A DNA stretch of 64,000 nucleotides from Terriglobia bacterium (GTDB lineage Bacteria > Acidobacteriota > UBA6911). The number at the start of each line of letters is the position of its first letter. Position 1 is the stretch's first letter. The notes under the pieces were generated by a model. It was given only the letters and a program-made list of their open reading frames with translations. It ran no database searches and was not told the DNA's origin. The position numbers and the translations under genes are program-made. This document shows positions 11,575 through 62,205 of the stretch, in pieces. The DNA lies in assembly GCA_963824985.1 (NCBI GenBank), contig CAWGRQ010000030.1:64583-128582 (forward strand). Direction: 5' to 3'.

Positions 11575-13635
11575 GTGCCCGACCACAGGATTGACATTGC
11601 ACAACTCGCCATCAACACCATCCGCACGCTCTCCATGGACGCGGTCCAGGCGGCCAACTCCGGCCACCCCGGAGCGCCTATGGGAATGGCTCCGACCGCC
11701 TACTGCCTCTGGCAGAACTTTCTCCGTTACGATCCCGAAGATCCGCTGTGGCCCGATCGCGATCGGTTTGTTTTGTCGGCCGGGCACGCGTCGATGCTGC
11801 TCTATTCCATCCTGCACCTAACCGGTGTTAAAGCGATCAACCCGCAGAAAGAACCTTCAGCAGAGCCGGCGGTAAGCCTCGAAGACATCAAACAGTTCCG
11901 GCAGCTCGACAGCAGATGCCCGGGCCACCCGGAGTATCGATTGACGGCCGGGGTCGAGACCACCACGGGACCGCTTGGCCAGGGGGCGGCCGCGAGTGTC
12001 GGGATGGCGATCGCCGGACGCTGGCTGGCCTCCTACTTCAATCGCCCCGGGTTCGACCTGTTCGGCTACCGGGTGTATGCACTCGCCGGTGACGGATGCA
12101 TGATGGAAGGGGTGGCCTCGGAGGCGGCTTCCCTGGCCGCACATCTGCGTCTGGCGAACCTGTGCTGGATTTATGACAGCAACCGGATCACCATCGAAGG
12201 GCACACCGACCTTGCCTTTACAGAGGATGTCGGCACCCGTTTTGCCGCCTACGGATGGAATGTGACCCGGGTCGCCGACGGCAACGATCTCGTGGCGCTT
12301 GACGAGGCGTTCCGCAACCTGCAGCAGCCCCAGGACCGCCCGACACTGATCATTGTGAAGAGTCATATCGCCTATGGTGCACCCACCAGGCAGGACACAA
12401 GCGCCGCACACGGCGAACCGCTGGGCGAAGAGGAAATCCGGCTGACCAAGCGCGCCTATGGCTGGCCGGAAGACGCCAAATTCCTGGTGCCCGAGGAAGT
12501 GCCGGTTCATTTCCGGAATGGCATCGGCTTGCGCGGAAGGCAGTCACACGATGTCTGGAAACGGACTTTCGCGGCCTACGGGGAACGTCATCCGGAACTG
12601 GCAAATGATCTTCGCATGATGCAGGCGGGAGAATTGCCCGCAGGCTGGGACCTGGACGTCCCGGTGTTCGCCGCCGACGCCAAGGGCATGGCAAGCCGCG
12701 AGGCCTCGGGCAAGGTATTGAATGCCGTCGGCAGAAAAATCCCCTGGCTGATCGGCGGTTCGGCCGACCTGGCCCCCTCAACGAAAACCCGCCTGACGTT
12801 CGAGGGCGCCGTAGACTTCGCGGAGGGCTCACCCGGAGGCCGCAATTTCCACTTCGGGGTCCGGGAACACGCCATGGGTTCCATCATCAACGGGCTATCG
12901 CATTGTGGCTTCCGTCCCTATGGCGCCACCTTCCTCGTTTTCAGCGACTACATGCGCGGAGCCATACGTCTGAGCGCGCTGATGGAGGTCCCAGTTACGT
13001 ATGTATTCACCCACGATTCCATCGGTGTGGGCGAAGATGGGCCGACCCACCAACCAGTGGAGCAGATCCCTTCGTTGCGCGCCATACCCGGGCTGATCAC
13101 CATGCGTCCAGCGGACGCAAACGAGGTCGCGGAGGCATGGCGTCTGATCCTTCAGCTGCACCGCAGGCCCATGGCTCTCATTCTCAGCCGCCAGGCGCTC
13201 CCGACGTTGGATCGGACCAGGTATGCTTCAGCTGCGGGGCTGGCCCGCGGCGCCTATGTTCTCGCCGGTTCCGCCGATGAATCCCCCGAAATTCTGCTGA
13301 TGGCAACCGGGAGCGAGGTGGCCCTCTGTGTGCGGGCTTATGAGTCGCTTCAGGCCGAAGGCATCCGGGCCCGCCTGGTCAGCATGCCGTCATGGGAACT
13401 GTTCGAGCAGCAGGATCAGTCCTACCGCGACAGCGTGCTGCCTCCCGGGATCACGGCCCGCGTCGCCGTGGAAATGGCGTGCAGCCTGGGGTGGGAGCGC
13501 TACCTGGGACAGAGAGGCACAATGATCGCCATGCGTAGTTTCGGCGCCTCGGCCCCGATAAAGGACCTGCAACGCAGGTTCGGATTCACCCCCGAGCGGA
13601 TCGTCGCCGCAGCCAAAGAGCTGCTGCACGTCTGA
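11575..13635 (+). CDS. tkt: Transketolase
   Basis: 686 aa. Motifs: LAINTIRTLSMDAVQAANSGHPGAPMGMAP, GPLGQGAA, ALAGDGCMMEG, GEDGPTHQPVEQ. GTG start with AAGGGGGA upstream. Confidence 0.97.
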   Translation: MPDHRIDIAQLAINTIRTLSMDAVQAANSGHPGAPMGMAPTAYCLWQNFLRYDPEDPLWPDRDRFVLSAGHASMLLYSILHLTGVKAINPQKEPSAEPAVSLEDIKQFRQLDSRCPGHPEYRLTAGVETTTGPLGQGAAASVGMAIAGRWLASYFNRPGFDLFGYRVYALAGDGCMMEGVASEAASLAAHLRLANLCWIYDSNRITIEGHTDLAFTEDVGTRFAAYGWNVTRVADGNDLVALDEAFRNLQQPQDRPTLIIVKSHIAYGAPTRQDTSAAHGEPLGEEEIRLTKRAYGWPEDAKFLVPEEVPVHFRNGIGLRGRQSHDVWKRTFAAYGERHPELANDLRMMQAGELPAGWDLDVPVFAADAKGMASREASGKVLNAVGRKIPWLIGGSADLAPSTKTRLTFEGAVDFAEGSPGGRNFHFGVREHAMGSIINGLSHCGFRPYGATFLVFSDYMRGAIRLSALMEVPVTYVFTHDSIGVGEDGPTHQPVEQIPSLRAIPGLITMRPADANEVAEAWRLILQLHRRPMALILSRQALPTLDRTRYASAAGLARGAYVLAGSADESPEILLMATGSEVALCVRAYESLQAEGIRARLVSMPSWELFEQQDQSYRDSVLPPGITARVAVEMACSLGWERYLGQRGTMIAMRSFGASAPIKDLQRRFGFTPERIVAAAKELLHV

Positions 13636-13764
13636 TCTTCAGGATCGCTGCTCCTGGAAAGCGAATTGCTTTCTTTCTTACAGACATCGCCCGACGAGGC
13701 GACGCCTCATAAAATAGGACAGTGTCGCCGGCCATTGGCTTGTGTCAAAACGTCACCGGCAAGG

Positions 13765-14049
13765 GCATCTGTTTAGCCGATGCTGAACAGCAGAACGCAA
13801 AGACGCAAGGACGCAAAGAGATTCCTTTCGGTTCGCGGGCATGGGCGGCCTTCGGCCGCATCCTTGGGCGAGCCGCGGGAGAAAGCGCAATCCTCCTGAG
13901 TAGCCGCTGCCCGCGCTTTCTCCCGCGGCTCGCCCAAGGATGCGCCAGCGCGAAGCGCTGCGCCCACGCCCGTTGCTCAGTGTCGATCTTTGCGTCCTTG
14001 CGCCTTTGCGTTTTGCTTCATCATCCATTTGATTTGGCTAAACAATTAC
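13765..14049 (+). mobile_element. MITE copy 1 (full length, 285 bp) with 8-bp TSD CGGCAAGG
   Basis: The ends GCATCTGTTTAGCC ... GGCTAAACAATTAC are flanked by CGGCAAGG at 13757-13764 and 14050-14057. It has a nested palindromic interior. Five more copies are in the window. Confidence 0.85.
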
Positions 14050-14492
14050 CGGCAAGGACCCGGGCGTTTTTTATCTCTCCGACTTCGTTTTGGAAAGTGC
14101 TGTCGGACTCTTGCGGCAATCTGTCGATCGGTCATCTTGTCGACGGCTTCAATACCGATTATCCGTCCTCCAAGCGCCTCACTCTCAAGACGCTTTTCGA
14201 TTTCGACTTTTGCCTCGCCGGGGCCAAATATCAGTATGGACTCGGCATCGCGTATACACGATATTACTTGATCATAGTATTTATTGAGATGGCCGGCATA
14301 GCGCTGGTCTCGCTGATCCTCGGCCGAGTCTTCCTGCGCTGCACCAGAATACCGGACATGCTTCTCCATTTCCGATTCGATCAAGTTTGTCTCTTCACCG
14401 TTGTCAGTGACACTTACGATGACCGTCTTCCTGTGGTCAATCCAAATGCCCACCTCTTTTCTCATACGTACCTCCTCAGACATATCGTTCAC
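14046..14492 (-). CDS. Conserved hypothetical protein downstream of mgtA
   Basis: 148-aa ORF. VGIWIDHRKTVIVSV ... ILIFGPGEAKVEIEKRL looks like a real small globular protein, possibly an eRF1/host-attachment-like fold (weak memory-based guess). Its stop codon lies inside the MITE end. Confidence 0.6.
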   Translation of the reverse strand: MNDMSEEVRMRKEVGIWIDHRKTVIVSVTDNGEETNLIESEMEKHVRYSGAAQEDSAEDQRDQRYAGHLNKYYDQVISCIRDAESILIFGPGEAKVEIEKRLESEALGGRIIGIEAVDKMTDRQIAARVRQHFPKRSRRDKKRPGPCR

Positions 14493-14551
14493 CTATCGTC
14501 AGAATTCCAGTCCCAGGCACGGGAGTCTCCGGCACATGATGGTTCGGCAGC

Positions 14552-17095
14552 TCACAGAAGCGCATGTCTTCGATAGAACCAGGACTTAACGGCCTGCACA
14601 ACGAGAAGGTACGTCGCGGCCAATGCCGCAATCGCGCCCAACAGCGACAACGGCAGCGGGATAAATCCCAGCAAACTCCCAACCGGCGTGTACGGCAGCG
14701 CCACGGCGACAGCGACGATCGCCAGCACGCCGATCATTAGCGGGCGGCCGGGACGGCTTTTGAACGGATTCCCTGCCGTCCTGATTACAAACACCACGAG
14801 CGTCTGGGTCGCCAGAGATTCCACGAACCAGCCGGTATGAAACAGCGGCGCATTCGTGGAAGCGTTGAACACCCAGAGCAGCACTCCAAACGTGAGAAAA
14901 TCGTAGATAGAACTTATGGGACCGATGATCATCATGAACTGGCGAATGAATCCGATCTGCCAGCGCTTGGGCCGGTGCAGCAGGGCGGGATCGACATTGT
15001 CGCCGGGGATGCTGATCTGTGAAAAGTCGTACAGAAAGTTGTTCAGCAAGATCTGCGTCGGCAACATGGGCAGAAAGGGGAGGAAGAGCGAGGCCGCAGC
15101 CATGCTGAACATATTGCCGAAGTTCGAACTGGTGCCCATGATGATGTACTTCATGATGTTGGCGAAGCAGCGCCGACCTTCGATTACCCCGTCGTTCAAA
15201 ACCGCCAGATCCTTTTCCAGCAGGATGATCTTCGCGGCATCCTTAGCCACGTCGACACCGTTCATGACGGAAATGCCTACATCCGCGGTGTGCAGCGATG
15301 GTGCATCGTTGATGCCGTCACCCCCGTACGCGACGACGTGCCCGCGTGCCTTGAGAGCGACGATGACCCGGTTCTTCTGCTCCGGGGACACGCGGGCGAA
15401 GATGGCGCCGTTCTCGGCCTGGTAGGCCAGAGCGGCATTATCCATCGTATCGACCTGATTCCCGATAAGAATGCGGTCCGACGGCAGCCCGACGTCGTGG
15501 GCAATCTTCTGGGTCACGTACTGGTTGTCTCCGGTCATGATAACCACGGAGATGCCGTTCTGTTTCAGCGCCTCCAGAACGGCATGAACGCCTTCCTTGG
15601 GGGGGTCAAGGAATGCCGCGAACCCGGCCAGCATCATATCCCGCTCATCCGCCGGGGTGTAGACATCCCGCTTGTCCACTTTCAGCACGGCCACCCCAAG
15701 GGTCCGGTAACCGTCGGCGCTCAACTTTTTGAAGTTCTCCTCCGCCACGGCGCGCCGGCTTTCATCGAATGGCTGGGGTGACCCATCGATGCTCACGGTT
15801 TGGCAGATGCCAAAGATACCTTCTGCCTCACCCTTGGTAATGAGGAGGTGCTCGTCATCATGTCGCACCACTACCGACAGGCGCTTGCGGTTGAAGTCGA
15901 AGGGGATCTCGTCCACCTTGACATATTCCACAATTTTTGGATGCTCGTGTTTCAACACGGCATCGTCCAGAGGGCTCTTGATGCCCGCTTCAAAGTAGCT
16001 GTTCAGATAAATGAGCCGCAGAACGTTGTCATCCGCCTTCCCCAGCATATCCACGTGCCGATCAAGCACGATCTCCCCTTCGGTCAGCGTGCCCGTCTTA
16101 TCGCTGCAGAGGATCGTCACGCTGCCGAAATCCTCGATGGCCGCAAGTTGCTTGACCAGGACCTTTTTCCCGGTCATCCGCCTCGCCCCCTGGGCCAGGG
16201 TGACGGTGATGATCATGGGCATCATTTCAGGAGTCATCCCTACCGCCAGGGCGACTGCGAAGAGGAAGGACTCCACCAGCGGGCGGTGGAAATAGAGGTT
16301 TACCAGCAGAACGAAAAGCACGAGCAGCATGATCACCCGGGTAATCATCAGCCCGAAGTGGCGTATGCCGCGGCCGAATTCCGTCTCCGGCGGCCTACCT
16401 GCCAAACGCTGTGCGATCGCTCCCAGGGCAGTACTTGGGCCTGTGCGTACGATGACGGCGGTGCCAAGCCCTGTCTGAACCGCAGTGCCCAGGAACACAC
16501 TGTTGCTCGCGTCGGCAACACCGTGCTTCCCCCCCGGCAGATCGCGCGCGGACTTCTCGACGGGCAGCGACTCCCCGGTGAGCGCCGACTCGCGCACCTG
16601 CAGGTCTTTCACATCCAGCAGTCGTGCATCTGCCGGCACGAGGTCGCCCGCATTGAGCCTGACGACATCCCCTGGGACCAGCTCCGCAATCGGCAACTCC
16701 TGTTCCCGCCCATCGCGCATAACGGCAGCCGTCGTTGCTACCTGCTTCCGAATCTCTGCCACCGCATGTCGAGCCTGGAATTCCATGAAGAAGTTCAGCA
16801 GAACGCTGAGGAGGACTATGGCGATGATGATGAGTCCGCCAACCTGGTCCCCCAGTCCCAGGGATATGCCGCTGGCCACGAGCAGTATGACGACGAGAGG
16901 ATTGGCAAAGAGGCGAAGGAAGATGAGCAAGCCTGTGAAGCGCGACTCCTGGGCCATGCTGTTCGGGCCATACAGACGCAACCGCCGTTTCGCCTCGCCG
17001 GCGGTCAGCCCGGCCGGGGTCGCCCGCAGCAGTGGAAGAAGCTCCTGCAGCGGTTGGTCCCAGAAGCTATCGAGGTTCCTATCTCGCTTGTCCAT
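14552..17095 (-). CDS. mgtA: Magnesium-translocating P-type ATPase
   Basis: Motifs: CSDKTGTLTEGE phosphorylation site, MTGDN, GDGINDAPSLHTADVGISV, and the MgtA-typical NNFLYDFSQISIPGDNVD. I prefer the start at MDKRDRNLDSFW (ATG 17095-17093) over the ORF-track start at 17158. Confidence 0.92.
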   Translation of the reverse strand: MDKRDRNLDSFWDQPLQELLPLLRATPAGLTAGEAKRRLRLYGPNSMAQESRFTGLLIFLRLFANPLVVILLVASGISLGLGDQVGGLIIIAIVLLSVLLNFFMEFQARHAVAEIRKQVATTAAVMRDGREQELPIAELVPGDVVRLNAGDLVPADARLLDVKDLQVRESALTGESLPVEKSARDLPGGKHGVADASNSVFLGTAVQTGLGTAVIVRTGPSTALGAIAQRLAGRPPETEFGRGIRHFGLMITRVIMLLVLFVLLVNLYFHRPLVESFLFAVALAVGMTPEMMPMIITVTLAQGARRMTGKKVLVKQLAAIEDFGSVTILCSDKTGTLTEGEIVLDRHVDMLGKADDNVLRLIYLNSYFEAGIKSPLDDAVLKHEHPKIVEYVKVDEIPFDFNRKRLSVVVRHDDEHLLITKGEAEGIFGICQTVSIDGSPQPFDESRRAVAEENFKKLSADGYRTLGVAVLKVDKRDVYTPADERDMMLAGFAAFLDPPKEGVHAVLEALKQNGISVVIMTGDNQYVTQKIAHDVGLPSDRILIGNQVDTMDNAALAYQAENGAIFARVSPEQKNRVIVALKARGHVVAYGGDGINDAPSLHTADVGISVMNGVDVAKDAAKIILLEKDLAVLNDGVIEGRRCFANIMKYIIMGTSSNFGNMFSMAAASLFLPFLPMLPTQILLNNFLYDFSQISIPGDNVDPALLHRPKRWQIGFIRQFMMIIGPISSIYDFLTFGVLLWVFNASTNAPLFHTGWFVESLATQTLVVFVIRTAGNPFKSRPGRPLMIGVLAIVAVAVALPYTPVGSLLGFIPLPLSLLGAIAALAATYLLVVQAVKSWFYRRHALL

Positions 17096-17276
17096 GCAGG
17101 CTACTCCCGTCGCTGCCGGAATAAAGCATGCCCCTGATTTCACAGCCGCGGCGAGCAATAGTGAACAGCGTTGCGTTCAATTTTGAACAGTTTCTATTCT
17201 GGAAATCGACCAGGGCCATCAATCGGAGTCCATCGATTCCGGGCAGGATGCAATTGCGGCGGGGCGGGAGCAAGGG

Positions 17277-17465
17277 ATGGAATCGGCGCTCGAAGGCACC
17301 ATCCAGGAAGAGATCGAGCGCGTGAGAATCACCGCGCATCTGTTCCGGTTCGTATACGGCAAGCCGCTCTGGGCCTGCAAGTTTGACGAAAAAGCCACCG
17401 ACCTATTCGACTTCCAGAACTCGATCGCGGTCCGCCTGGGGGCCGCCTTCGCCCCACGGCTGCAC
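17277..17465 (+). pseudogene. Short remnant resembling the TolB-like periplasmic module of CadC/adenylate-cyclase-type regulators
   Basis: LEGTIQEEIERVRITAHLF..GKPLWACKFDEKATDLFDFQNSIAVRLGAAFAPRL follows the pattern G.V....RVRI.A.LID...G..LWAE.YD..L.DIFA.QD.I...I..AL from that module (memory-based). It has no N- or C-terminal context, and the rest of ORF 17277..17699 is antisense to the next gene. Confidence 0.3.
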
Positions 17466-17492
17466 GGGAAGCATCAAGCAAATCTTGCGGCG

Positions 17493-17684
17493 CTATCGCC
17501 CCACACGGAGACCCGAGATAGAGCTAAAAAGCCCAAAGACGTTCAGGAGCCACAGAACCACGGCGATAACCACTACCGCATTCAGGATCCCTTTGATGGA
17601 ACGCTGCATGGGTATGTAGTTGTTAACCAGCCAAAGAAGAACTCCAATCACGATCAGGATCACCACGAGTTGAATCAAGGGCAT
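17493..17684 (-). CDS. Small two-TM membrane protein (Thivi_2564-like family)
   Basis: The internal start MPLIQLVVILIVIGVLLWLVNNYIPMQRSIKGILNAVVVIAVVLWLLNVFGL (ATG 17684-17682) gives 63 aa. The sequence pattern is recognised from memory as a widespread small membrane protein family. Confidence 0.7.
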   Translation of the reverse strand: MPLIQLVVILIVIGVLLWLVNNYIPMQRSIKGILNAVVVIAVVLWLLNVFGLFSSISGLRVGR

Positions 17685-17864
17685 GACGCACCTCTCTGAA
17701 TACTGTGTTCTCGGAGCAGGCCTGGGTGGCCGCCCCTTCTGACATCCGCCTCTCACCAGGTTGCGATTGAGAACCAGCGGCACATTTCTTATACCTTGGA
17801 GGTGATGCGCGTGTCAGGTCAGTATGGCTCACACGTGTGATCAAAATTGCTCACCCCATGAATG

Positions 17865-18029
17865 GTAATTGTTTAGCCAAATCAAATGGATGAAGAAGCA
17901 AAACGCAAAGACGCAAAGGCGCAGGGGCGCAAAGATCGACACTGAGCAACAGGCGTGGGCGCAGCGCTTCGCGCTGGCGCATCCTTGCGTCTTTGCGTTC
18001 TGCTGTTCAGCATCGGCTAAACAGATGCC
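17865..18029 (-). mobile_element. MITE copy 2 (165-bp internal-deletion derivative, inverted) with 8-bp TSD CATGAATG
   Basis: GTAATTGTTTAGCC ... GGCTAAACAGATGC is flanked by CATGAATG at 17857-17864 and 18030-18037. It ends 90 bp upstream of the RT start codon. Confidence 0.85.
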
Positions 18030-18119
18030 ATGAATGAAGCAGGCTCGGCAATCTGCTATCGCCGGCGGTCCTTCTCGCGTTACAATGCGTAGATCTCCTC
18101 TTCCCCGACGGAGGCCGCC

Positions 18120-19790
18120 ATGAAGACAACGCTGAAGGGACATTCCCTCGATTGGGCGCTCATCCACATTTGCCGATACTGCGATAGCGACCTGTTTCCG
18201 CGCATGTTTGAATTCAACGTCATCCGCTGGAACTGGAGCGAGGTCAAGGAACGGATGCTCGCGGTCAACATGGAAACATACGAGCCGCGGCCGCCTCAGA
18301 TCCGCTTTGCCCCCAAACTCACCGGCGCCCAGCGGATCGTACACCGGCTCGATCCGATCGATTCATTGATATACACGGCCATGGTGTATGAAATCCATGA
18401 AGCCATGGAGAAGACCCGCAAACCCGAATCGCCGGTCCCCGCCACGCTCCTGATCCACACCGATTCCGACGGCTCCTTTTTCCAAACGGCTCGAGATGCT
18501 TGGCAGCAGCACACCGCGCGAATCGAAAGGCTCGCCCGATCCTATCCGGACGGCCATGTTCTGATGGCGGATATCTTCGATTTTTTCGGGCAGATCCAGC
18601 CGCGGCGGCTGGCAGGGGTCCTTGCGGAAGTACCCGGGTGTAACGCAAAACTCGCCCGGAACCTCATACATTTCCTTTACGCATTGTGCCCGGCGTCAGG
18701 CCGCGGCATCCCGATCGGTCCCGCCGCAAGCACCGTCCTCTCCGAGGTCATCATGGAATCCATCGAACGCAGGATCGTGGCTTCCACGAGTGACTTCGCC
18801 CGCTGGGGAGATGATCTGCGCGTTTTCTTTTCCACACGCGAGGAGGCGCAAAAGGCGCTGGGTGAATGGAGTTCCTACCTGCACACGACCTATGAGATGA
18901 TTTTCGCCCTCGATAAGACGCGGGTGATCCCGGTGCCGGAGTTTATGGGGCGTCATTTCAGGGGGCTCCCGGAAGAGACTGTCGCGGCGGGTCCTGCAGA
19001 GGCTCGCTTGAGCCGGGCAGTCGGGGACGGCAGCGGCATAATTCCTCATCACTATGCGTGGGGGACCTCAGCGGTCCCGGAAACACGGCCGGCGAGCGTC
19101 TACCGGCTGTTGCAGTCGCTGCCTGAATTTGAAACGACCGCAGCGGTGTACCTGCATCACTTCCACAAGGCGCTGGCGGGAAGACCGCCCGATATGCTGA
19201 CCGTGAAGCGCATCATGCGCAAGGCCGCCGCCTACCGGATTCGTTCGATTCTTCCCGGGGTTCTCGAGCATTTCGACCGTCTGATGCCGGTGATTCGCGA
19301 AGCCGGGACCTACTTGAGAGCGGTACTGGATGATGAGGAAGTGAGCTCGCACGCGGTGCCCCTGCGCCGGATCTGGGAGAGCAGCCTGCAGGGCAGTTCC
19401 TACTTTCACGACTGGATGTGCCATGTAATGACCCATCCCGGCTTCAATCAAATCCGACTCCCGGAGGATTACAGTTCGGTGGTCGGGATCAGGAATCAGG
19501 CCTTAATCGCCCTGCGGCGGCACGATATCGATTGGGTGCATCGCCATGTTGCCCACATGGAAACCATGGATCCATGGGATCGGCATGCGGTTCTCCATTC
19601 ATGCGCCATGTTGCCCGAGGGGGAACGGGAGCGTGTGGCCGGAGCGGCGCTGGCTGCCGGGGACCTCGTGGAACTATCTCTCGCCCGGCATCTCCAATCG
19701 CTTTCGAGTCGAAAAACCAGTCCCGGCGGCGGCCGCTCCGACATCAAGGGTCCCGACAATTATCCCTCGTACGGCGACAAACCGGCCTAG
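18120..19790 (+). CDS. Stand-alone reverse transcriptase, UG/Abi (defence-associated RT)-like, with about 280-aa helical C-terminal extension
   Basis: 556 aa, ATG preceded by GGAGG (18110-18114). RT motifs occur in the canonical order. Motif 1-2 is FAPKLTGAQRIVHRLDPIDSLIYTAM. Motif A is LMADIFDFFGQI (D151 = nt 18570-18572). Motif B is GIPIGPAASTVLSEVIM. Motif C is FARWGDDLRVFF (DD = nt 18810-18815). Motif D is LDKTRV. I see no RNase H, maturase/endonuclease or integrase motifs. Confidence 0.85.
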   Translation: MKTTLKGHSLDWALIHICRYCDSDLFPRMFEFNVIRWNWSEVKERMLAVNMETYEPRPPQIRFAPKLTGAQRIVHRLDPIDSLIYTAMVYEIHEAMEKTRKPESPVPATLLIHTDSDGSFFQTARDAWQQHTARIERLARSYPDGHVLMADIFDFFGQIQPRRLAGVLAEVPGCNAKLARNLIHFLYALCPASGRGIPIGPAASTVLSEVIMESIERRIVASTSDFARWGDDLRVFFSTREEAQKALGEWSSYLHTTYEMIFALDKTRVIPVPEFMGRHFRGLPEETVAAGPAEARLSRAVGDGSGIIPHHYAWGTSAVPETRPASVYRLLQSLPEFETTAAVYLHHFHKALAGRPPDMLTVKRIMRKAAAYRIRSILPGVLEHFDRLMPVIREAGTYLRAVLDDEEVSSHAVPLRRIWESSLQGSSYFHDWMCHVMTHPGFNQIRLPEDYSSVVGIRNQALIALRRHDIDWVHRHVAHMETMDPWDRHAVLHSCAMLPEGERERVAGAALAAGDLVELSLARHLQSLSSRKTSPGGGRSDIKGPDNYPSYGDKPA

Positions 19791-19965
19791 CCGGTTTTAT
19801 TCATGAGTCGAGAATCGCAACACACCCCGGGACACGGAACGGCACAGTCGAACACGGACTGCCTCCGTGCGCAGGGATTCTGTCCGGCTGGTATCGGCGA
19901 CGGCTGAGTAGTAATATTCGCTTTTTGCCGCTCTGTCACCTGATTTCCGATTGCGGAGGCGATTC

Positions 19966-22794
19966 ATGAAGCACTCAACACTTCTCATCAAGATCCAAAT
20001 CGTTCTGATGCTGGCGCTCGCTCTTTCGATTACGGCATGCGGGCAAGGTGAACCTGTCGCATCGAAATTCCCCACGCTCAAATTCGAAACCTTCAAACTG
20101 GCAAACGGGCTCCAGGTGATTCTCAGCGCGGATCACCGACTGCCTCTGGTTGCGGTGGACCTGTGGTATCACGTGGGGCCGGCCAACGAGCGGCCGGGGC
20201 GCACCGGGTTTGCGCACCTCTTTGAACACATGATGTTCCAGGGTTCGAAGCATGCGGGAGATAAGCCGTTCCAGGTCCTGGAGACCGCGGGGGCCACGGA
20301 AATCAACGGCACGACCGATTTCGACCGTACCAATTATTTCGAGACCATGCCCGCCGGCCAACTGGAACTGGCGCTCTGGCTTGAGAGCGACCGCATGGGC
20401 TGGCTCCTGGACAAGCTGGATCAGGGCAAGCTTGCCAATCAGATCGATGTCGTGCGCAATGAACGGCGCCAGGGCGAGAACTCCCCATATTCGCTGGTCG
20501 AGGAAGAACTGTTCCATCAGCTTTTCCCGAAAACGCATCCCTATTACGCCAGCGTGATCGGGTCGCACGCGGACATAGAATCGGCGGAACTGAACGATGT
20601 GCGCGACTTTTTCACACAATATTACACTCCCAACAACGCCAGCCTGGCGATCGTCGGTGATTACGACCCCGGCACGATCAGGGGCCTGGTTGAAAAATAC
20701 TTCGGCCCCATTCCCGCCGGGCCGACAGTGCCCAGGATCGACGCCGTGACACCGCCGATTACCCAGGAGCGGCGCGTCACGGTAACCGACAAGGTACAAT
20801 TACCGCGCGTATACATGGCCTGGATCACCGCGCCCATTTACAAGCCGGGGGACGCGGAAGCCGATCTTTTGGCGCGCATTCTGGGCGGTGGAAAATCGAG
20901 TCGCCTTTATAAAAGGCTGGTATACGAAAAACAGATTGCCCAGGATGTGAGCGCTTCCCAATACTCGCTCATTCTTGGTTCGGTATTTCAGATCACGGCA
21001 ACCGCGCGGCCGGGGGTCAAGCCGGAAGATCTGGAGAAGGCGGTCGCAGAGGAATTGAGCGCTATCCAGAAGGACGGTCCCGGCGCGGCGGAAATGGAAC
21101 GCGCGCGCAACACCATCCAGACCGGCATCATCCGTGGCCTGCAGACGCTTGGCGGATTCGGGGGCGTGGCTGATGTGCTCAATCAGTACAACCACTACCT
21201 CGGCGAGCCAGGCTATCTGTCGAAGGACCTGGAACGGTACGAAAAAGCGACTCCGGCGGCGGTGCAGAAGGTGGCCATGACACTGACGCGCGATTCGCGA
21301 GTCGTGGTGTATGGAGTCCCCGGGGAAAAGGTGATCCAGGACGTGCCGAAGAAGCCCGAGCCCAAGATTACGGCGCAGAATCTCCCGGGAGGTCCCACCG
21401 GCGATGAATGGCGCAATACTCCCCCGGCACCGGGCAAGACCGGCACGATAAGCCTGCCGGTGCCCGTAGAGTTCACACTCCCCAACGGCCTGACCGTCCT
21501 TCTGATGGAACAGCACAACCTGCCCGTCTTCACCGCCGAACTGGCGGTGCTGCGCGGCAGCGACACCAATCCGATCTCCCGGCCGGGCCTGGCTTCGTTT
21601 ACCGCTGCCATGCTGACCGAGGGAACCCATAAGCGATCGTCCCCGCAACTGGCGGAAGAAATCGCGCAGATCGGCGCCTCCCTGACTACCAATTCCACTA
21701 TGGACGCCAGCTTCATTGTCGGTGGCGCTCTGACCGGCAATGCCGACCGGTTGTTCGAGTTGCTTTCCGACGTCGCCTTGAATCCAGCCTTTCCTGAGGA
21801 GGAGATCGCCCGGGTTCGCCAGCGCCGGCTCACTGCGCTCGTGCAGCAGGCCGACAATCCCAGCAGCCTGGCCAGCAGGATCGCATATCGGGAGGTCTAC
21901 GGGGAAAAGAGCCCGTATGGTTACCTGGAAAGCGGCACCAGGGAGTCCACCGAGGCCACCACCCGTGACGACATGACGCGGTTCTATCAGGATGGCTTTG
22001 GGCCGAAAAACTCCGCGCTGGTGGTCGCCGGCGACATTACCCAGGAGCAGCTGAAAACGCTGGCCGGGAAATACTTCGGCGCATGGGCGGTGGGAGCGCT
22101 CACCTCGCAGGCGCCTGACGTCGCCGCCGCCCAAACACGCCGGATCGTGATCGCCGACAAGCCGCGCGCGCCGCAGAGCGTGCTCATCATCGGCCAGGTG
22201 GGTCTGGCGCGCAGCCATCCGGATTACGTCCCGGTCAGCATCATGAACGATATCCTTGGCGGACTGTTCTCCAGCCGCATCAATCTCAACCTGCGCGAGG
22301 CCCACGGTTATACCTATGGAGCCTCCTCCATGTTCCTGTTCCGCCGCGGACCCGGACCATTCCTGGTTTTTACCATGGTCCGCACGGATGTCACCGCTGC
22401 ATCCGTCAAGGAGATCTTTTCCGAACTGGAGAAAATCCGCAATTCCCAGGTCGAGCCTAAAGAGCTGGCCATGGCCAAGGAAAGCAGGGTCCGCGGCCTT
22501 ACCGGCATCTTCGAGACCATGGAGCAGACCGCCGGCACCCTGGCGAATCTTTTCATTTACAACCTGCCGCTCGACTATTACCGGCAGCTGCCGCAGAAGA
22601 TCGAGGGGACCGAGGCCGCCGCCGTGCAGCGGGTGGCACGGGAGAACCTGGCGCCGGAGAGAATGGTCATTGTAGCCGTCGGCGATCGCGCGCGGATCGA
22701 GCCGGAGTTGAAGAAGCTCGGCTTGGGTCCGATTATTGCCCTGGATGCCGAGGGGAAGCCGCTGGCCCAACCCCGAACGTCGCCGGGGAAATAA
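19966..22794 (+). CDS. M16 (pitrilysin/insulinase) family zinc peptidase, tandem double-module type
   Basis: The HxxEH zinc motif occurs in GFAHLFEHMMFQGS, and a second inactive-type M16 module fills the C-terminal half. The ORF-track start is a TTG at 19951. I prefer ATG 19966 (MKHSTLL, signal peptide), which has GGAGG 6 nt upstream. Confidence 0.92.
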   Translation: MKHSTLLIKIQIVLMLALALSITACGQGEPVASKFPTLKFETFKLANGLQVILSADHRLPLVAVDLWYHVGPANERPGRTGFAHLFEHMMFQGSKHAGDKPFQVLETAGATEINGTTDFDRTNYFETMPAGQLELALWLESDRMGWLLDKLDQGKLANQIDVVRNERRQGENSPYSLVEEELFHQLFPKTHPYYASVIGSHADIESAELNDVRDFFTQYYTPNNASLAIVGDYDPGTIRGLVEKYFGPIPAGPTVPRIDAVTPPITQERRVTVTDKVQLPRVYMAWITAPIYKPGDAEADLLARILGGGKSSRLYKRLVYEKQIAQDVSASQYSLILGSVFQITATARPGVKPEDLEKAVAEELSAIQKDGPGAAEMERARNTIQTGIIRGLQTLGGFGGVADVLNQYNHYLGEPGYLSKDLERYEKATPAAVQKVAMTLTRDSRVVVYGVPGEKVIQDVPKKPEPKITAQNLPGGPTGDEWRNTPPAPGKTGTISLPVPVEFTLPNGLTVLLMEQHNLPVFTAELAVLRGSDTNPISRPGLASFTAAMLTEGTHKRSSPQLAEEIAQIGASLTTNSTMDASFIVGGALTGNADRLFELLSDVALNPAFPEEEIARVRQRRLTALVQQADNPSSLASRIAYREVYGEKSPYGYLESGTRESTEATTRDDMTRFYQDGFGPKNSALVVAGDITQEQLKTLAGKYFGAWAVGALTSQAPDVAAAQTRRIVIADKPRAPQSVLIIGQVGLARSHPDYVPVSIMNDILGGLFSSRINLNLREAHGYTYGASSMFLFRRGPGPFLVFTMVRTDVTAASVKEIFSELEKIRNSQVEPKELAMAKESRVRGLTGIFETMEQTAGTLANLFIYNLPLDYYRQLPQKIEGTEAAAVQRVARENLAPERMVIVAVGDRARIEPELKKLGLGPIIALDAEGKPLAQPRTSPGK

Positions 22795-22879
22795 TGGCGG
22801 GTGGCGTTTCCGGTGCGCGTCCGATCCGGGCTACGGCAGGAACAATCAAGTATATGCGGCGCTTCCATGGGCCGATAGG

Positions 22880-23908
22880 ATGGGAATGAAATCCCTCAGA
22901 TTTTGTATATTCGCGCTTCTGGTGTTCTACGGGTCCGGGAGTTCCAGCCTGAGCCGGCAGCAGCCGGCTCAGCCCTTGCATGCCGACCTCGAGGAGGCGG
23001 CGCGCCTGGTCAGCCTCACTCCTAAGTCCGGCCGGCAATACAATTATATCGTGACCGCTGGAATTCGCTTCCTTCTGTTCTGGGTGTCCCGGGATGATGT
23101 GGGTCACGGGTATATCCGGATGGGAACGCTTCCCGAGGATCCGGAGACGGAAATGGTCGAGCTGTTGATGGGATCCGATCCGGCAAAGGCGCCGCTCGGA
23201 GTCAATCGCTGGGGAGCGGCTGCCGAAGTCTGGCGCCGCAAGGACCATTCCGGCGCGTTTTTCGGCTTCATGAAATCCTCGAAAGGCGATTCCGTATCGG
23301 CCGCTCGGGACGAACTGTCGCGCGAGCAGGAGGTCCAGAAGTACCCCTTTGAGGGCATCATCATCCGCACCCACGATGGCCGGGCGGTGTCAACCTCGGT
23401 GCCCATCAATGCGGCCACCGATTTCACCCTCAATCAACTGCCGATGGCCAGGCAAATGGTCATCGAAAACCTCAAGGCTGCCGCACGAGCGCCGCGCGTC
23501 ACGGATGGCCGGACGCTGGCAGACTGTGCAAACGGCATGGGCTTCCTCTTTACGCTGCGCGATTTGATCGATGCTCATCTGGCGGGACAGAAGGCGCCGA
23601 TGACCCGGTGTTATGTGTATGCCGCACGACGCTACACCATCTCCATCCGCAGTTCCGAGCCGGTAGTCGAGTTGAAGGTAGCCCTGAAGATGCGCGGCGC
23701 CACCCGGAAAGTGGAACGAACCTATCGCAGCCTGAGGCGGGCCGATTTCCGCGTGGTAAACACCGTGACCGGCCTGCCGACTGATTTCCAGGCGGTGTTC
23801 GGGGAGTCGGGGGAACTTCGCGGCATTCCGATTCAGTTCGAACACCAGCCGAATTGGTGGTTTCGGGTTACCATCAACCTTCATCCGGAGCTGCCGCTGA
23901 AAAAGTGA
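22880..23908 (+). CDS. Hypothetical secreted protein
   Basis: Signal peptide MGMKSLRFCIFALLVFYGSG at the internal ATG 22880 (or 22886). The 5' extension of the ORF-track ORF to 22736 overlaps the M16 gene end and is not protein-like. No family recognised. Confidence 0.65.
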   Translation: MGMKSLRFCIFALLVFYGSGSSSLSRQQPAQPLHADLEEAARLVSLTPKSGRQYNYIVTAGIRFLLFWVSRDDVGHGYIRMGTLPEDPETEMVELLMGSDPAKAPLGVNRWGAAAEVWRRKDHSGAFFGFMKSSKGDSVSAARDELSREQEVQKYPFEGIIIRTHDGRAVSTSVPINAATDFTLNQLPMARQMVIENLKAAARAPRVTDGRTLADCANGMGFLFTLRDLIDAHLAGQKAPMTRCYVYAARRYTISIRSSEPVVELKVALKMRGATRKVERTYRSLRRADFRVVNTVTGLPTDFQAVFGESGELRGIPIQFEHQPNWWFRVTINLHPELPLKK

Positions 23909-23910
23909 CC

Positions 23911-23998
23911 GCATCTGTTTAGCCGATGCTAAACAGCAGAACGCAAAGACGCAAGGACGCAAAGAGATTCCTTTCGGTTCGCGGGCATGGGCGGCCTT
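23911..23998 (+). mobile_element. MITE copy 3 (truncated, left 88 bp only)
   Basis: GCATCTGTTTAGCCGATGCTAAACAGCAGAACGCAAAGACGCAAGGACGCAAAGAGATTCCTTTCGGTTCGCGGGCATGGGCGGCCTT is co-linear with the left arm of copy 1, then similarity stops. It starts 2 nt after the stop codon at 23906-23908. Confidence 0.8.
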
Positions 23999-24092
23999 GA
24001 GCCATTGTCCCGCTTGATGTGGGACCCCGTTTTCGCCTACTATCGATGTTGCCCTTTCACTACGACAACATTTGAATTCAGGAGGCAACCTT

Positions 24093-26165
24093 ATGTTCAG
24101 GACCTTTGTCACGCGCATCCTGGCAGTGGTGGCGGTATCGGCCGTCATGTTACCCGCGCAGACAGCGCGGCGCCCGCTTGGACTCGACGACATGCCCCGT
24201 CTGCGAGAAGTCCGGGACCCGCAGTGCTCGCCCGATGGCAAGTGGGTGGCCTACGTCGTCTCCATGATTGACGCAAAGGAGGACAAGAGCAGCGCGCACA
24301 TCTGGATGGTCGGCTACGATGGCCAGGGGGAACGACAGATCACTTCCAGCCAGGACAGCGAGTCCTCGCCGCGCTGGAGCCCGGATGGGAAATACCTGTC
24401 ATTCACTTCGTCCCGGCCGGGCAAGGCCAGCGGCAACCAGGTCTGGCTGATGGACCGAGGCGGCGGCGAGGCCTTCCAGCTCACCGAAACCAAAGGGCGC
24501 CTGCAGGGGTATGAATGGTCTCCGGATTCCAAACGGATTGCGCTGGTGGTCGGCGATCCCGATCCCGAAGCCGAATCGGCCGCGCCCGGCACCGCAGCCG
24601 GGACCGGGGGACGGGGCGGAACCCAGAGAGCTCCCAAACCGATCGTAATCGACCGCTACAAATATAAGCAGGATGGGCAGGGATACCTCCTGTCAGGTCG
24701 GCATTCCTATATATACCTGTTTGAGATCGCAACCAGGAAAACGGACCGGCTCACCGCCGGGACATGGGATGAATCGAGTCCATCGTGGTCACCTGACGGA
24801 TCACGGATCGCCTTCATGAGCAATCATGCGGAAGATCCGGATCGCGATCCGGCCAGCCAGATTTTCGTGGCCGAATCCAAGCCCGGGTCTGCAATCAAGG
24901 AGGTGACTCCGCCGACCAGCCGTGCGTCACGCTCGCAACCGGCCTGGAGTCCCGACGGCAAGTGGATTACATACCTGGAAACGGACGAAAAGGCCTACAA
25001 CGCTTACAGCATGACGCATCTGGCAGTCGTCGCCGCCGATGGCAGCGCTGCCCCCACGAGAGTGAAGGCGGTGGAGGATCTCGACCGCGGCGTCTCGTCA
25101 CCCGAATTCAGCCGCGACGGTCGGTTCATTGCGTTTACCGTCACGGACGACCGATCGGTATATCCTGCGCGGGTCGGCACCGCCGGCGGCCCGGTCGAGC
25201 GCCTGATGAAACCGCCCGTGGTCCTTTCCAGCTGGGTCACCGAAGGGGGTTGCACCGCGGTAATCTCCGGCGGCGACACCAGGTACAATGAAGTGCACGC
25301 GCTGGAGGGAGGCTCCCTTCGCCAGATCACACATCAGAACGATGCGCTGTTTGCCGAGCTGCAGATTGCGCCCACGGAGGAAGTAAACTTCAAGAGCCCG
25401 GACGGAACCGAAGTGCACGGGCTCCTGACCCGGCCGGTGAATTATGTGCCAGGCACAAAAGTCCCCCTGCTGCTGCGCATTCATGGTGGTCCCAACGGCC
25501 AGGATCAGCATTCGTTCAGCGTGGAACGCCAGTTTTTTGCGGCGCACGGCTATGCCGTGCTGGCGGTGAACTACCGCGGAAGTTCCGGCCGCGGAATGAA
25601 ATACTCGCGTTCCATTTTTGCCGACTGGGGACATTTCGAAGTCGAAGACCTGAAGGCCGGGGTCGATTACGTCATCAAGATGGGTGTTGCCGATCCCGAA
25701 AAGTTGGGCGTGGGCGGCTGGAGCTACGGTGGAATTCTGACCGACTACATGGTTGCAAGCGACACCAGGTTCAAGGCGGCCACGAGCGGCGCCGGCACCG
25801 CATTTACCGTCGCCTTTTACGGCACCGACCAGTACATCATCCAGTACGACTACGAAATCGGGCCGCCCTGGAATCCGAAATCGTGGGAGATCTACCAGAA
25901 GATTTCGTACCCGTTCCTGCATGCCGATCGAATCAAAACTCCGACCCTGTTTCTGGGCGGGGAGCGCGACTTCAATGTCCCGGTGCAGGGGGGTCAGCAG
26001 ATGTACCAGGCGCTGCGCAGCCTCGGGATCGACACGCAGCTCATCATTTATCCGAACGAGAATCACGGCATCAGCCGGCCAAGCTACGTCCGGGACCGTT
26101 ACGAGCGTTACCTGGCGTGGTACGACAAATACATAAAGGGGGTGTCCCCCGCCCCGGCAAAATAG
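24093..26165 (+). CDS. S9 family peptidase with N-terminal TolB-like beta-propeller (acylaminoacyl-peptidase / DPP type)
   Basis: Repeated SP.WSPDGK propeller motifs. Catalytic domain motifs: LLLRIHGGP, GGWSYGG, GGERDFNVP, NENHG. Start at ATG 24093 (MFRTFVTRILAVVAV) with GGAGG 7 nt upstream. Confidence 0.92.
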   Translation: MFRTFVTRILAVVAVSAVMLPAQTARRPLGLDDMPRLREVRDPQCSPDGKWVAYVVSMIDAKEDKSSAHIWMVGYDGQGERQITSSQDSESSPRWSPDGKYLSFTSSRPGKASGNQVWLMDRGGGEAFQLTETKGRLQGYEWSPDSKRIALVVGDPDPEAESAAPGTAAGTGGRGGTQRAPKPIVIDRYKYKQDGQGYLLSGRHSYIYLFEIATRKTDRLTAGTWDESSPSWSPDGSRIAFMSNHAEDPDRDPASQIFVAESKPGSAIKEVTPPTSRASRSQPAWSPDGKWITYLETDEKAYNAYSMTHLAVVAADGSAAPTRVKAVEDLDRGVSSPEFSRDGRFIAFTVTDDRSVYPARVGTAGGPVERLMKPPVVLSSWVTEGGCTAVISGGDTRYNEVHALEGGSLRQITHQNDALFAELQIAPTEEVNFKSPDGTEVHGLLTRPVNYVPGTKVPLLLRIHGGPNGQDQHSFSVERQFFAAHGYAVLAVNYRGSSGRGMKYSRSIFADWGHFEVEDLKAGVDYVIKMGVADPEKLGVGGWSYGGILTDYMVASDTRFKAATSGAGTAFTVAFYGTDQYIIQYDYEIGPPWNPKSWEIYQKISYPFLHADRIKTPTLFLGGERDFNVPVQGGQQMYQALRSLGIDTQLIIYPNENHGISRPSYVRDRYERYLAWYDKYIKGVSPAPAK

Positions 26166-38953: not shown

Positions 38954-39025
38954 CCTGCCCTCGATTCCTGCGATTTGGCTTCCTCACGGACTTCAAAAAA
39001 GAGTGATTCACGGAATAGTTGCCGG

Positions 39026-39299
39026 GTAATTGTTTAGCCAAATCTAATGGATGAAGAAATAAAGCGCAAGGACGCAAAGATCGCCGCTGACCAACAGGCG
39101 TGGGCGCAGCGCTTCGCGCTGGTGCATCCTTGGACGAGCCGCGCGAGAAAGCGCGGCCAGTGGCTCCTCAGGAGGATTGCCCTTTCTCGCGCGACTCGTC
39201 CGAGGATGCGGCCGAAGGCCGCCCACGAACCGAAAGGGTTCCCTTTGCGTCCTTGCGGCCTTGCGTCTTTGCGTTCTGCTGTTAAGCATCGGCTTAACC
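39026..39299 (-). mobile_element. MITE copy 4 (full length, inverted; far end degenerate)
   Basis: Starts GTAATTGTTTAGCCAAATCTAATGG and carries a diverged version of the inner palindrome. It ends GTTAAGCATCGGCTTAACC instead of ...GGCTAAACAGATGC. No clean TSD. Confidence 0.75.
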
Positions 39300-55528: not shown

Positions 55529-55823
55529 GCATCTGTTTAGCCGATGCTGAACAGCAGAACGCAAAGACGCAAGGATGCAAAGAGATTCCTTTCGGTTCGC
55601 GAGCATGGGCGGCCTTCGGCCGCATCCTTGGGCGAGCCGCGGGAGAAAGCGCAATCCTCCTGAGTAGCCGCTCTGCCCGCGCTTTCTCCCGCGGCTCGCC
55701 CAAGGATGCGCCAGCGCGAAGCGCTGCGCCCACGCCTGTTGCTCAGTGTCGATCTTTGCGCCCCTGCGCCTTTGCGTCTTTGCGTTTTGCTTCTTCATCC
55801 ATTTGATTTGGCTAAACAATTAC
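55529..55823 (+). mobile_element. MITE copy 5 (full length, 295 bp) with 8-bp TSD CCGATTTT
   Basis: GCATCTGTTTAGCC ... GGCTAAACAATTAC is flanked by CCGATTTT at 55521-55528 and 55824-55831. Nearly identical to copy 1. Confidence 0.88.
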
Positions 55824-56019
55824 CCGATTTTAAGTCCGCTGTAATGTTCATCTCTTCCCATTCAATAGCCATCGGCCGATCCGTTCCCAACCCCCAACTC
55901 CACACATTAGAATCCTCTATTTATTATATTCAAAGAATTTAGCGTATTTTCCCAGATGCCTTTTTTGCCCGAGAGCCGGCTGCGAATTGCTTCCGGAAGT
56001 GCTATAGTCAGGCAATTAC

Positions 56020-59138: not shown

Positions 59139-59238
59139 TGAAAATCTTTTGGCTTTGCGACTTTGCGTCTTGGCGTCCTTGCGTTGATTATTTTAACGCA
59201 ATGACGCCAAGACGCGAGGGCGCAAAGAGATATTTTCG
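59139..59238. repeat. ~100-bp palindromic mini-element related to the MITE arms
   Basis: GGCTTTGCGACTTTGCGTCTTGGCGTCCTTGCGTTGA, loop TTATTT, then TAACGCAATGACGCCAAGACGCGAGGGCGCAAAGAG. It has the same GCGTCTTxGCGTCCTTGCG word structure as the MITE sub-terminal arms. Confidence 0.6.
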
Positions 59239-61928: not shown

Positions 61929-62074
61929 GCATCTGTTTAGCCGATGCTGAACAGCAGAACGCAAAGACGCAAGGACGCAAAGAGATTCCTTTCGGTTCGC
62001 GGGCATCGGCGCCCTTGCGCCTTTGCGTCTCTGCGTTTTGCTTCTTCATCCATTTGATTTGGCTAAACAATAAC
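61929..62074 (+). mobile_element. MITE copy 6 (146-bp internal-deletion derivative) with near-perfect 8-bp TSD
   Basis: GCATCTGTTTAGCC ... GGCTAAACAATAAC is flanked by CAAATAGT (61921-61928) and CAAAAAGT (62075-62082). It begins 17 nt after the upstream stop codon. Confidence 0.85.
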
Positions 62075-62205
62075 CAAAAAGTATTTCCCCGCAGAATTGG
62101 CAGTCTTGTCCTGTCCCGCATTCTGAAGTTGGAAAGCATGACCATCAAGCAAAAAGGGGCAAGCCCGAAGGCTTGCCCCTTTTTCATTGCAGGTAAGTCA
62201 GCGGA

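Follow-up and report, generated by a model that had tools for sequence, protein, structure and literature searches.

The stretch of DNA considered here, referred to as the window, is a 64,000-nucleotide (nt) segment from a Terriglobia bacterium of the phylum Acidobacteriota (assembly GCA_963824985.1, contig CAWGRQ010000030.1, positions 64,583 to 128,582 of the forward strand). At positions 18120-19790 it carries a gene for a reverse transcriptase (RT) of 556 amino acids (aa). A preliminary description of the window, made by a model from the letters alone, regarded this protein as a UG/Abi-type RT with an alpha-repeat extension and as a candidate single-gene defence system. Profile and Foldseek comparisons support that view and sharpen it, as the gene can be read as the stand-alone variant of UG7/DRT8, one of the families of defence-associated RTs (DRTs). 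The features of the gene and its borders are as follows (all on the plus strand).

18110-18114, plus strand: Shine-Dalgarno sequence GGAGG, 5 nt before the ATG (read in the sequence)
18120-19790, plus strand: complete RT open reading frame (ORF) with an ATG start, 556 aa plus stop, a Class 1 UG/Abi RT that is very probably of UG7/DRT8 type (ORF list, Drt8 profile)
18120-18293, plus strand: helical N-terminus, aa 1-58, belonging to the family fold (model helices, conservation)
18294-19022, plus strand: RT fingers and palm, aa 59-301 (conserved columns; residues checked by translation)
18801-18815, plus strand: motif C, R-W-G-D-D, aa 228-232, with Trp where Tyr is usual
19023-19091, plus strand: disordered linker between RT and alphaRep domain, aa 302-324, holding Tyr312 (codon 19053-19055; model, conservation)
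19092-19709, plus strand: all-helical alphaRep domain, aa 325-530 (structure model, Foldseek)
19710-19787, plus strand: disordered C-terminal tail, aa 531-556, ending in GPDNYPSYGDK (predicted local distance difference test score, pLDDT, about 30)
19749-19781, plus strand: tail motif GPDNYPSYGDK, aa 544-554, 3 residues before the stop
19791-19875, plus strand: 3' flank, about 45 nt conserved with the related locus L001, followed by a hairpin resembling a repetitive extragenic palindromic (REP) element (alignment to L001)

The 556-aa frame with its strong ribosome-binding site was borne out, and on translation every RT motif listed in the preliminary description was found where it had been placed. 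D151 lies in LMADIFDFF, W229-G-D231-D232 in FARWGDD (the Trp229 codon is tgg, 18804-18806) and K266 in LDKTRV. The fingers provide K66 and R72, motif A provides D151 and the steric-gate position F156, motif B comprises G196-P198-G200-P201-S204, and motif D K266-T267. The first 60 residues, described at the outset as free of catalytic motifs, are no unrelated addition: they are conserved across the family and are covered by the Drt8 profile from residue 5; W12, H16, D24, F30, E31 and W39 are near-invariant in the homologue alignment, and helices are modelled at 7-23, 30-37 and 39-47.

The family of the protein was sought with the PADLOC models (2023 vintage). The Drt8 model gave 259 bits (E 3.4e-77), aligning aa 5-507 with positions 2-472 of its 493, and the runner-up, RT_UG21, gave 87 bits. 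The models that came next, UG22, UG23, UG19, UG32 and UG20, together with RT_UG21 fall in a range of 69-87 bits and span only the RT half, while the Drt4 and Drt6 profiles reach no more than 51 bits. The profile classification that the preliminary description had proposed as a check thus names a family, and the label of an orphan or unclassified RT does not hold, the best full-length match being one with demonstrated anti-phage activity. A word-indexed search of a 5.8-billion-protein index yielded 22 homologues, and Drt8 was the best-scoring model for all 22 of them (top E 4.7e-127). A search with a profile of the family itself returned 577 cluster representatives at E≤1e-30. General models are far less informative. 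Pfam RVT_1 is borderline (29.4 bits against a gathering cutoff of 29.6, aa 125-270), and the NCBIfam matches cover the palm region only, all far under their cutoffs (Drt4 50.8/450, group II 42.5/300, retron 30/235). With these scores, membership of the window RT in UG7/DRT8 can be proposed with high confidence, as a placement by profile scores.

The three closest relatives come from Acidobacteriota metagenome-assembled genomes (MAGs), with 51-62% identity. A second tier at 34-36% is spread over Planctomycetota, Chloroflexota, Nitrospirota, Cyanobacteria and Verrucomicrobiota, and the classical UG7 genes, those of Proteobacteria, share 23-29% identity with the window RT. Like UG7/DRT8, the window RT is a single gene with an intact active site and no conserved neighbour, and its best profile match is nearly full length, including the alphaRep domain; it differs in its Acidobacteriota host and in lying outside a defence island. 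It is a divergent Acidobacteriota addition to an already described anti-phage family, not a new system.

DRT type 8 corresponds to UG7 (Mestre et al. 2022, NAR 50:6084; PMC9226505). In that study, UG7 was among three Class 1 UG/Abi groups found to protect E. coli, its protection was robust against T5, and the RT active site was required. Two variants were described, matching the phylogeny of the group. The first has an adjacent PD-(D/E)XK nuclease-like gene (cluster 17) and is the one tested experimentally, whereas the second, with 165 members, has no associated gene (PMC9226505). The window gene, which lacks a nuclease, is of the second, partner-free kind, because no PD-(D/E)XK nuclease, non-coding RNA (ncRNA), template/variable repeat (TR/VR) pair or defence gene lies nearby.

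The fold was predicted with AlphaFold2 from an alignment of 22 sequences (mean pLDDT 83.1, predicted template modelling score 0.85). The model runs from a helical N-terminus through a fingers/palm core to a disordered stretch at about 302-324, an all-helical region at 325-530 and a disordered tail at 531-556. The alphaRep domain consists of thirteen predicted helices with pLDDT of about 90, which confirms the helical C-terminal extension noted at the outset. Foldseek against the PDB placed DRT4 (9vdv, 9vdo), DRT6 (9wy8) and UG15 (9l9s) at the top, with full-length alignments of 530-574 columns and TM scores of 0.53-0.61. Next came a thermostable group II intron RT, with a poorer alignment (TM 0.36-0.53), then AbiA, Abi-P2, DRT9 and AbiK. 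The suspected alpha-repeat layout is therefore confirmed by structure prediction, with single-gene Class 1 DRTs as the nearest solved relatives. A profile search of PDB sequences found no solved UG7 structure; its best hits were the same DRT6 and UG15 entries, with matches confined to the RT core.

DRT4 (UG15) and DRT6 (UG12) are thus the closest solved folds. Their solved structures (9vdv/9vdo, 9l9s, 9wy8) are hexameric. Their RT and alphaRep parts superpose on the window RT over the full length, their single-gene organisation is alike, and they are the presumed model for its mechanism; sequence identity is only 13-14%. AbiA, AbiK and Abi-P2 have the same Class 1 fold but resemble the window RT less closely in structure and sequence; AbiA is set apart by an additional HEPN-type domain, and all three are without the C-terminal motif tail. 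DRT7/UG10 is likewise a protein-primed Class 1 enzyme, but carries a fused primase-polymerase domain that is absent from the window RT.

Conservation at the active site was counted in an alignment of 148 full-length UG7-like proteins. In the homologue alignments the residues D151, D231, D232, K266, R72, G200 and P201 show either no variation or conservation above 85%. F156, five residues after D151, occupies the steric-gate position, which is aromatic in 99% of relatives; as in other RTs, an aromatic residue here predicts the use of deoxynucleoside triphosphates (dNTPs). The proteobacterial members of UG7/DRT8 have Y-V-D-D in motif C, and the window RT has W-G-D-D. In the well-studied RT classes Trp is not known to occupy this position, and to the preliminary description it was unfamiliar from characterised RTs. 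Within UG7 it is recurrent: among the 148 relatives the position holds Y in 109, W in 22, F in 15 and N in 1, so that Tyr accounts for 74% and aromatic residues for 99%. Trp is found in 15 of 15 close-clade proteins, all of Acidobacteriota type, down to 42% identity, and recurs in other branches, with about 20 changes between Y, W and F on a neighbour-joining tree. Judged from the alignment and the tree, Trp229 is a tolerated, lineage-fixed alternative that is neither unique nor a sign of decay.

A possible reason for this pattern comes from a preprint on DRT7/UG10, in which Tyr629 is proposed to hold the priming tyrosine in the active site by an aromatic contact. Tyr629 lies two residues before the catalytic Asp631 (mutated in D631N), and because of this spacing it is taken here as the motif-C Tyr. 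By analogy, such a role may explain why aromaticity, rather than Tyr itself, is conserved in motif C of UG7.

Protein priming on a tyrosine followed by template-independent synthesis has been reported for AbiK, Abi-P2, AbiA, DRT4 and DRT7. The priming residue sits in a different flexible element in each case: a fingers loop in AbiK and Abi-P2, the palm in DRT4 (Tyr125), the linker between RT and alphaRep in AbiA (Tyr298/Tyr303) and an alphaRep helix in DRT7. In DRT4, random single-stranded DNA is made constitutively and becomes toxic once a phage protein shields it from host exonucleases. As the Class 1 enzymes characterised so far share protein-primed synthesis, a similar mechanism is proposed for the window RT. 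The stand-alone polymerase would start DNA synthesis on its own tyrosine and would make single-stranded DNA without a template, F156 at the steric gate selecting dNTPs. The product would be harmless until phage infection stabilises or unleashes it, whereupon it would halt the growth of the infected cell, that is, cause abortive infection.

The best candidate for the priming residue would be Tyr312 in the disordered RT-alphaRep linker, the element equivalent to that from which AbiA primes. It is Tyr in 83% of the 148 family members (5% gaps), and pLDDT falls below 50 at 304-313; the choice is a guess from this conservation and predicted disorder. Another tyrosine, Y398, is 91% conserved but lies within a helix. 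Trp229 would help to hold the primer residue in place at the active site, a role like the one suggested for Tyr629 in DRT7/UG10. What is shown for the locus itself is its family, its fold, an intact set of catalytic residues and the lack of a nearby partner gene or RNA, while the mechanism is inferred from the characterised relatives. The protein-primed, template-independent mechanism is accordingly put forward with the chances for and against it in rough balance. The complete reading, in which the gene encodes a stand-alone UG7/DRT8 polymerase that is protein-primed, template-independent and acts by abortive infection, is considered moderately probable.

Several observations weigh against this reading. 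The sole UG7 system assayed, of the nuclease-associated variant, required its PD-(D/E)XK nuclease (PMC9226505). The mechanism of UG7/DRT8 is listed as not established in 2026 reviews, and a literature search for it returned nothing beyond Mestre 2022 and reviews, with no biochemically characterised enzyme. The priming Tyr125 of DRT4 has no Tyr counterpart in the window RT and aligns next to A127/W128. The structure model was built on a shallow alignment of 22 sequences. Further, the ten neighbouring ORFs have no Pfam or PADLOC defence match and present no defence-island signature, and the locus looks vertically inherited.

The first of these points leads to the alternative that survives best, namely that the window RT is a UG7/DRT8 polymerase unable to act alone and dependent on an effector, a nuclease or another, supplied in trans from a different part of the genome. 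The tested DRT8 lost protection when its PD-(D/E)XK active site was mutated, and nucleases acting in trans were raised by Mestre et al. for the unassociated variant (PMC9226505). The genomic surroundings of the relatives bear on the matter. A scan of one genome per species gave 79 loci, and ORFs within 4 kb of the RT, together with the immediate neighbours, were compared by all-vs-all BLAST. Among about 60 related loci there is no gene that turns up repeatedly beside the RT, so that the synteny survey proposed in the preliminary description upholds the stand-alone status. Ten contexts belong to the close clade (the window, L001, L002/L085, L003, L083, L084, L087 and the contigs of P0002, P0007 and P0009). 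In nine of these the RT stands alone among unrelated housekeeping genes, without a nuclease and usually at a different chromosomal site. The tenth, that of P0007 (51% identity), has a 268-aa gene for a Cas4-like PDDEXK_1 nuclease (L082:3351-4157) 17 nt downstream of the RT, and the distant relative L016 also carries a Cas4-like PDDEXK_1 gene beside its RT. Both published UG7 variants therefore occur in the close clade, as P0007 has a nuclease while the other nine contexts stand alone. No homologue of the P0007-linked nuclease was detected in the 64-kb window (tblastn, E≤1e-4), and DRT4, DRT6, AbiK and Abi-P2 function as single genes. Dependence on an effector in trans is, on this evidence, rather unlikely.

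Some further features of these contexts were recorded. The Cas4-like gene of L082 encodes a C-terminal Cys cluster and has a HicA toxin gene nearby. L084 (6270-9061) and the contig of P0009 share a trio of genes downstream of the RT, coding for a ~290-aa membrane protein, a 200-aa coiled-coil protein and a ~370-aa AAA ATPase, as well as an upstream gene of ~450 aa to which no Pfam family corresponds. For the four of these shared genes that lack a Pfam match, no equivalent could be detected in the window; the sharing could reflect lineage synteny or an accessory module.

The neighbourhood of the window RT leads to a second alternative, in which the gene would encode an RT-like polymerase long resident in this Acidobacteriota lineage and domesticated there for some cellular task outside phage defence. 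The flanking genes encode an OPT transporter, a transketolase, a P-type cation ATPase, a small membrane protein, M16 and S9 peptidases and a DAHP synthase, all of them housekeeping neighbours without a match to any defence model. The GC content of the gene (0.601) equals that of the window (0.599). An orthologous locus is present in the window, in L001 and on the P0002 contig, with the RT followed by a homologue of the gene at window 22856-23908; the RT (62-63% identity) has diverged about as much as this adjacent core gene (63%). In addition, the RT had no matches in phage genomes and only four weak ones in plasmids. The preliminary description had expected a lone defence islet. That the gene stands alone is correct, but the islet is not borne out, as no neighbour matches a defence model; the orthology of the locus in at least two other lineages at 62-63% identity points to long residence rather than to a recent islet. 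On the other side, some distant family members adjoin TIR, HNH, Cas4-like or helicase genes, the UG7 family is defence-enriched and experimentally protective (PMC9226505), and most close-clade genomes carry the gene at another place in the chromosome, as is seen with mobile defence genes. A domesticated role is considered improbable.

The gene at 22856-23908 (plus strand) codes for a conserved hypothetical protein, about 340 aa long, which begins with a signal peptide and matches nothing in Pfam or PADLOC. It appears to be present throughout the lineage, in agreement with the taxonomic assignment of the window. It was examined as a possible partner of the RT and rejected: the same word-indexed search that gave 22 homologues for the RT gave more than 570 for this protein, the named ones from Acidobacteria/Terriglobia, and with its signal peptide and the lack of a defence match it serves as a synteny marker. 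In L001 and on the P0002 contig the RT directly precedes its homologue, with no M16 peptidase gene between them, and the peptidase gene (window 19951-22794, compared with L001:4210-4714) is an insertion or deletion within the orthologous locus. Upstream of the RT, a divergent small ORF at 17493-17783 (minus strand) encodes a hydrophobic, probably two-helix membrane protein for which no family match was found.

A third alternative is that of an RNA-templated RT, of the Class 2 DRT2/DRT9 type or the retron type, that copies an ncRNA encoded in its flanks, for instance in the structured repeat upstream. A palindromic element of 166 nt (17864-18029) does end 91 nt upstream of the ATG, and about 45 nt past the stop are conserved with L001. 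However, the upstream element is one of at least six copies in the window of a dispersed repeat resembling a miniature inverted-repeat transposable element (MITE), and it is not conserved upstream of related RT genes, for which reasons it was rejected as an ncRNA. The conserved 3' flank was rejected likewise, as about half of it is a dispersed REP-like element and its folding is no more stable than that of shuffled sequences (z 0.07); it may be a terminator or a 3' untranslated region, and may or may not be part of the system. Over 13000-25000, a search of Rfam at E≤1 yielded two hairpin matches and nothing else; both are below threshold and fall within the dispersed repeat. There is no evidence for a cognate RNA at the locus, since the flanking hairpins are dispersed elements and the 3' region folds like shuffles.

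The preliminary description had set the protein apart from retron, diversity-generating retroelement (DGR) and group II intron RTs, and this is confirmed by profiles, Rfam, the repeat search and the alphaRep fold. The retron models score 12-30 bits against cutoffs of 235-600, no Rfam match rises above threshold, and the local inverted repeats are the MITE-like copies. As a group II intron RT, the protein reaches 42.5 bits with TIGR04416 (cutoff 300) over the palm only; no intron RNA was found in 13000-25000, and the C-terminus is an alphaRep domain. No TR/VR-type direct repeat was found in 12000-26000, where the only repeats are copies of the MITE-like element, and the Foldseek match to a DGR RT covers the RT core alone. 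The Class 2 DRTs with an ncRNA were rejected in the same manner (Drt2 11.8/390 bits, Drt3a 37.7/200), as the alphaRep domain is present and the upstream flank is not conserved. With the fold and the profile both of Class 1, an RNA-templated enzyme is highly improbable. It is scarcely credible that the enzyme is a catalytically compromised relic in which the change from Tyr to Trp in motif C inactivated the polymerase: apart from the unfamiliarity of that Trp in well-studied RTs, the residue is shared by the whole close clade and interchanged with Y and F across the tree, every metal-binding and dNTP-binding residue is intact, and the ORF is full length with a good Shine-Dalgarno sequence.

The two dispersed elements were also characterised in their own right. 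Copies of the palindromic MITE-like repeat lie at 13764-14050, 17864-18029, 23911-23998, 39025-39298, 55529-55824 and 61929-62075, with a weak trace at 59168-59231. The copies are intergenic; full ones measure about 287-296 nt, and shorter ones are internally deleted. The repeat is rich in an octamer-like unit, ACGCAAAG/ACGCAAGG, and an 18-mer from its core occurs 18 times in the window, where 0.1 matches would be expected. The REP-like element consists of GGACACGGA, 10 nt, GAACACGGA and then a hairpin closing on TCCGTG. It is located at 19829-19875 and 1778-1836 in the window and at L001:4249-4290, that is, downstream of two unrelated window genes and downstream of the RT in another Acidobacteriota MAG.

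The reading as a stand-alone UG7/DRT8 polymerase leaves one part of the protein to be considered, the disordered C-terminal tail with GPDNYPSYGDK, by which the window RT differs from UG7/DRT8. Such a tail, with one to four or more copies of the motif, is found in 13 of 15 close-clade proteins. The window RT has the minimal form, a single copy, to which AlphaFold assigns no docked position (pLDDT about 30), and the six-frame translation of the window holds no second copy. Among the relatives, P0004, P0007, P0008 and P0013, and also P0005, P0006 and P0010-P0012, have extra C-terminal modules past the motif tail. The module is in some a ~70-aa coiled coil and in others a conserved domain of ~100 aa (WLTER...GNC...RDDPLTRRAARAAALR) for which Pfam has no match. 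In P0014, P0015 and P0142 the tails are long repeats rich in Gly and Tyr. Remnants of the extra modules were sought downstream of the stop of the window RT, and none were found.

A search with the motif also recovered five small proteins (P0170-P0174, 122-142 aa), which contain 3-4 copies of [GA]PDNYPSYGDK and terminate exactly on the motif; one of them comes from a Candidatus Xenobiia MAG, and the loci include L080:8001-8408 and L081:3440-3868. In each of the four contexts examined, the gene for the small protein adjoins an HD_5/HD-GYP gene and not an RT, and flagellar and MotA/ExbB genes are also near in three of the four. That the motif links the RT to HD-GYP genes was considered and rejected, as the window and the close loci have no HD_5 homologue. 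GPDNYPSYGDK has no mention in the searchable literature. For the RT, the tail may possibly offer a priming site tethered to the enzyme, or be a docking peptide or a degron. A bolder proposal takes the Acidobacteriota clade for a distinct UG7 subtype, in which the flexible tail with its Tyr-containing motif would either prime while tethered or bind some factor of the host or the phage as a docking or regulatory peptide. The Trp in place of Tyr in motif C could then be co-adapted to this way of initiating, and the occurrence of the motif in small proteins beside HD-GYP genes of other phyla would hint that the two share a module for peptide recognition not yet described. This proposal is regarded as quite doubtful. 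The tail motif is nevertheless the only element of the protein that might lead to something new.

DRT8/UG7 is one of the few validated families of defence RTs with a mechanism still to be established. The window RT alone leaves the picture of these systems unchanged; it is a compact and partner-free member of the family, strongly divergent, and its phylum has been little covered by work on defence. Its comparison with the relatives yields candidates that can be tested: Tyr312 as the primer, the aromatic position of motif C at which residues interchange, and the C-terminal tail with its modular make-up.

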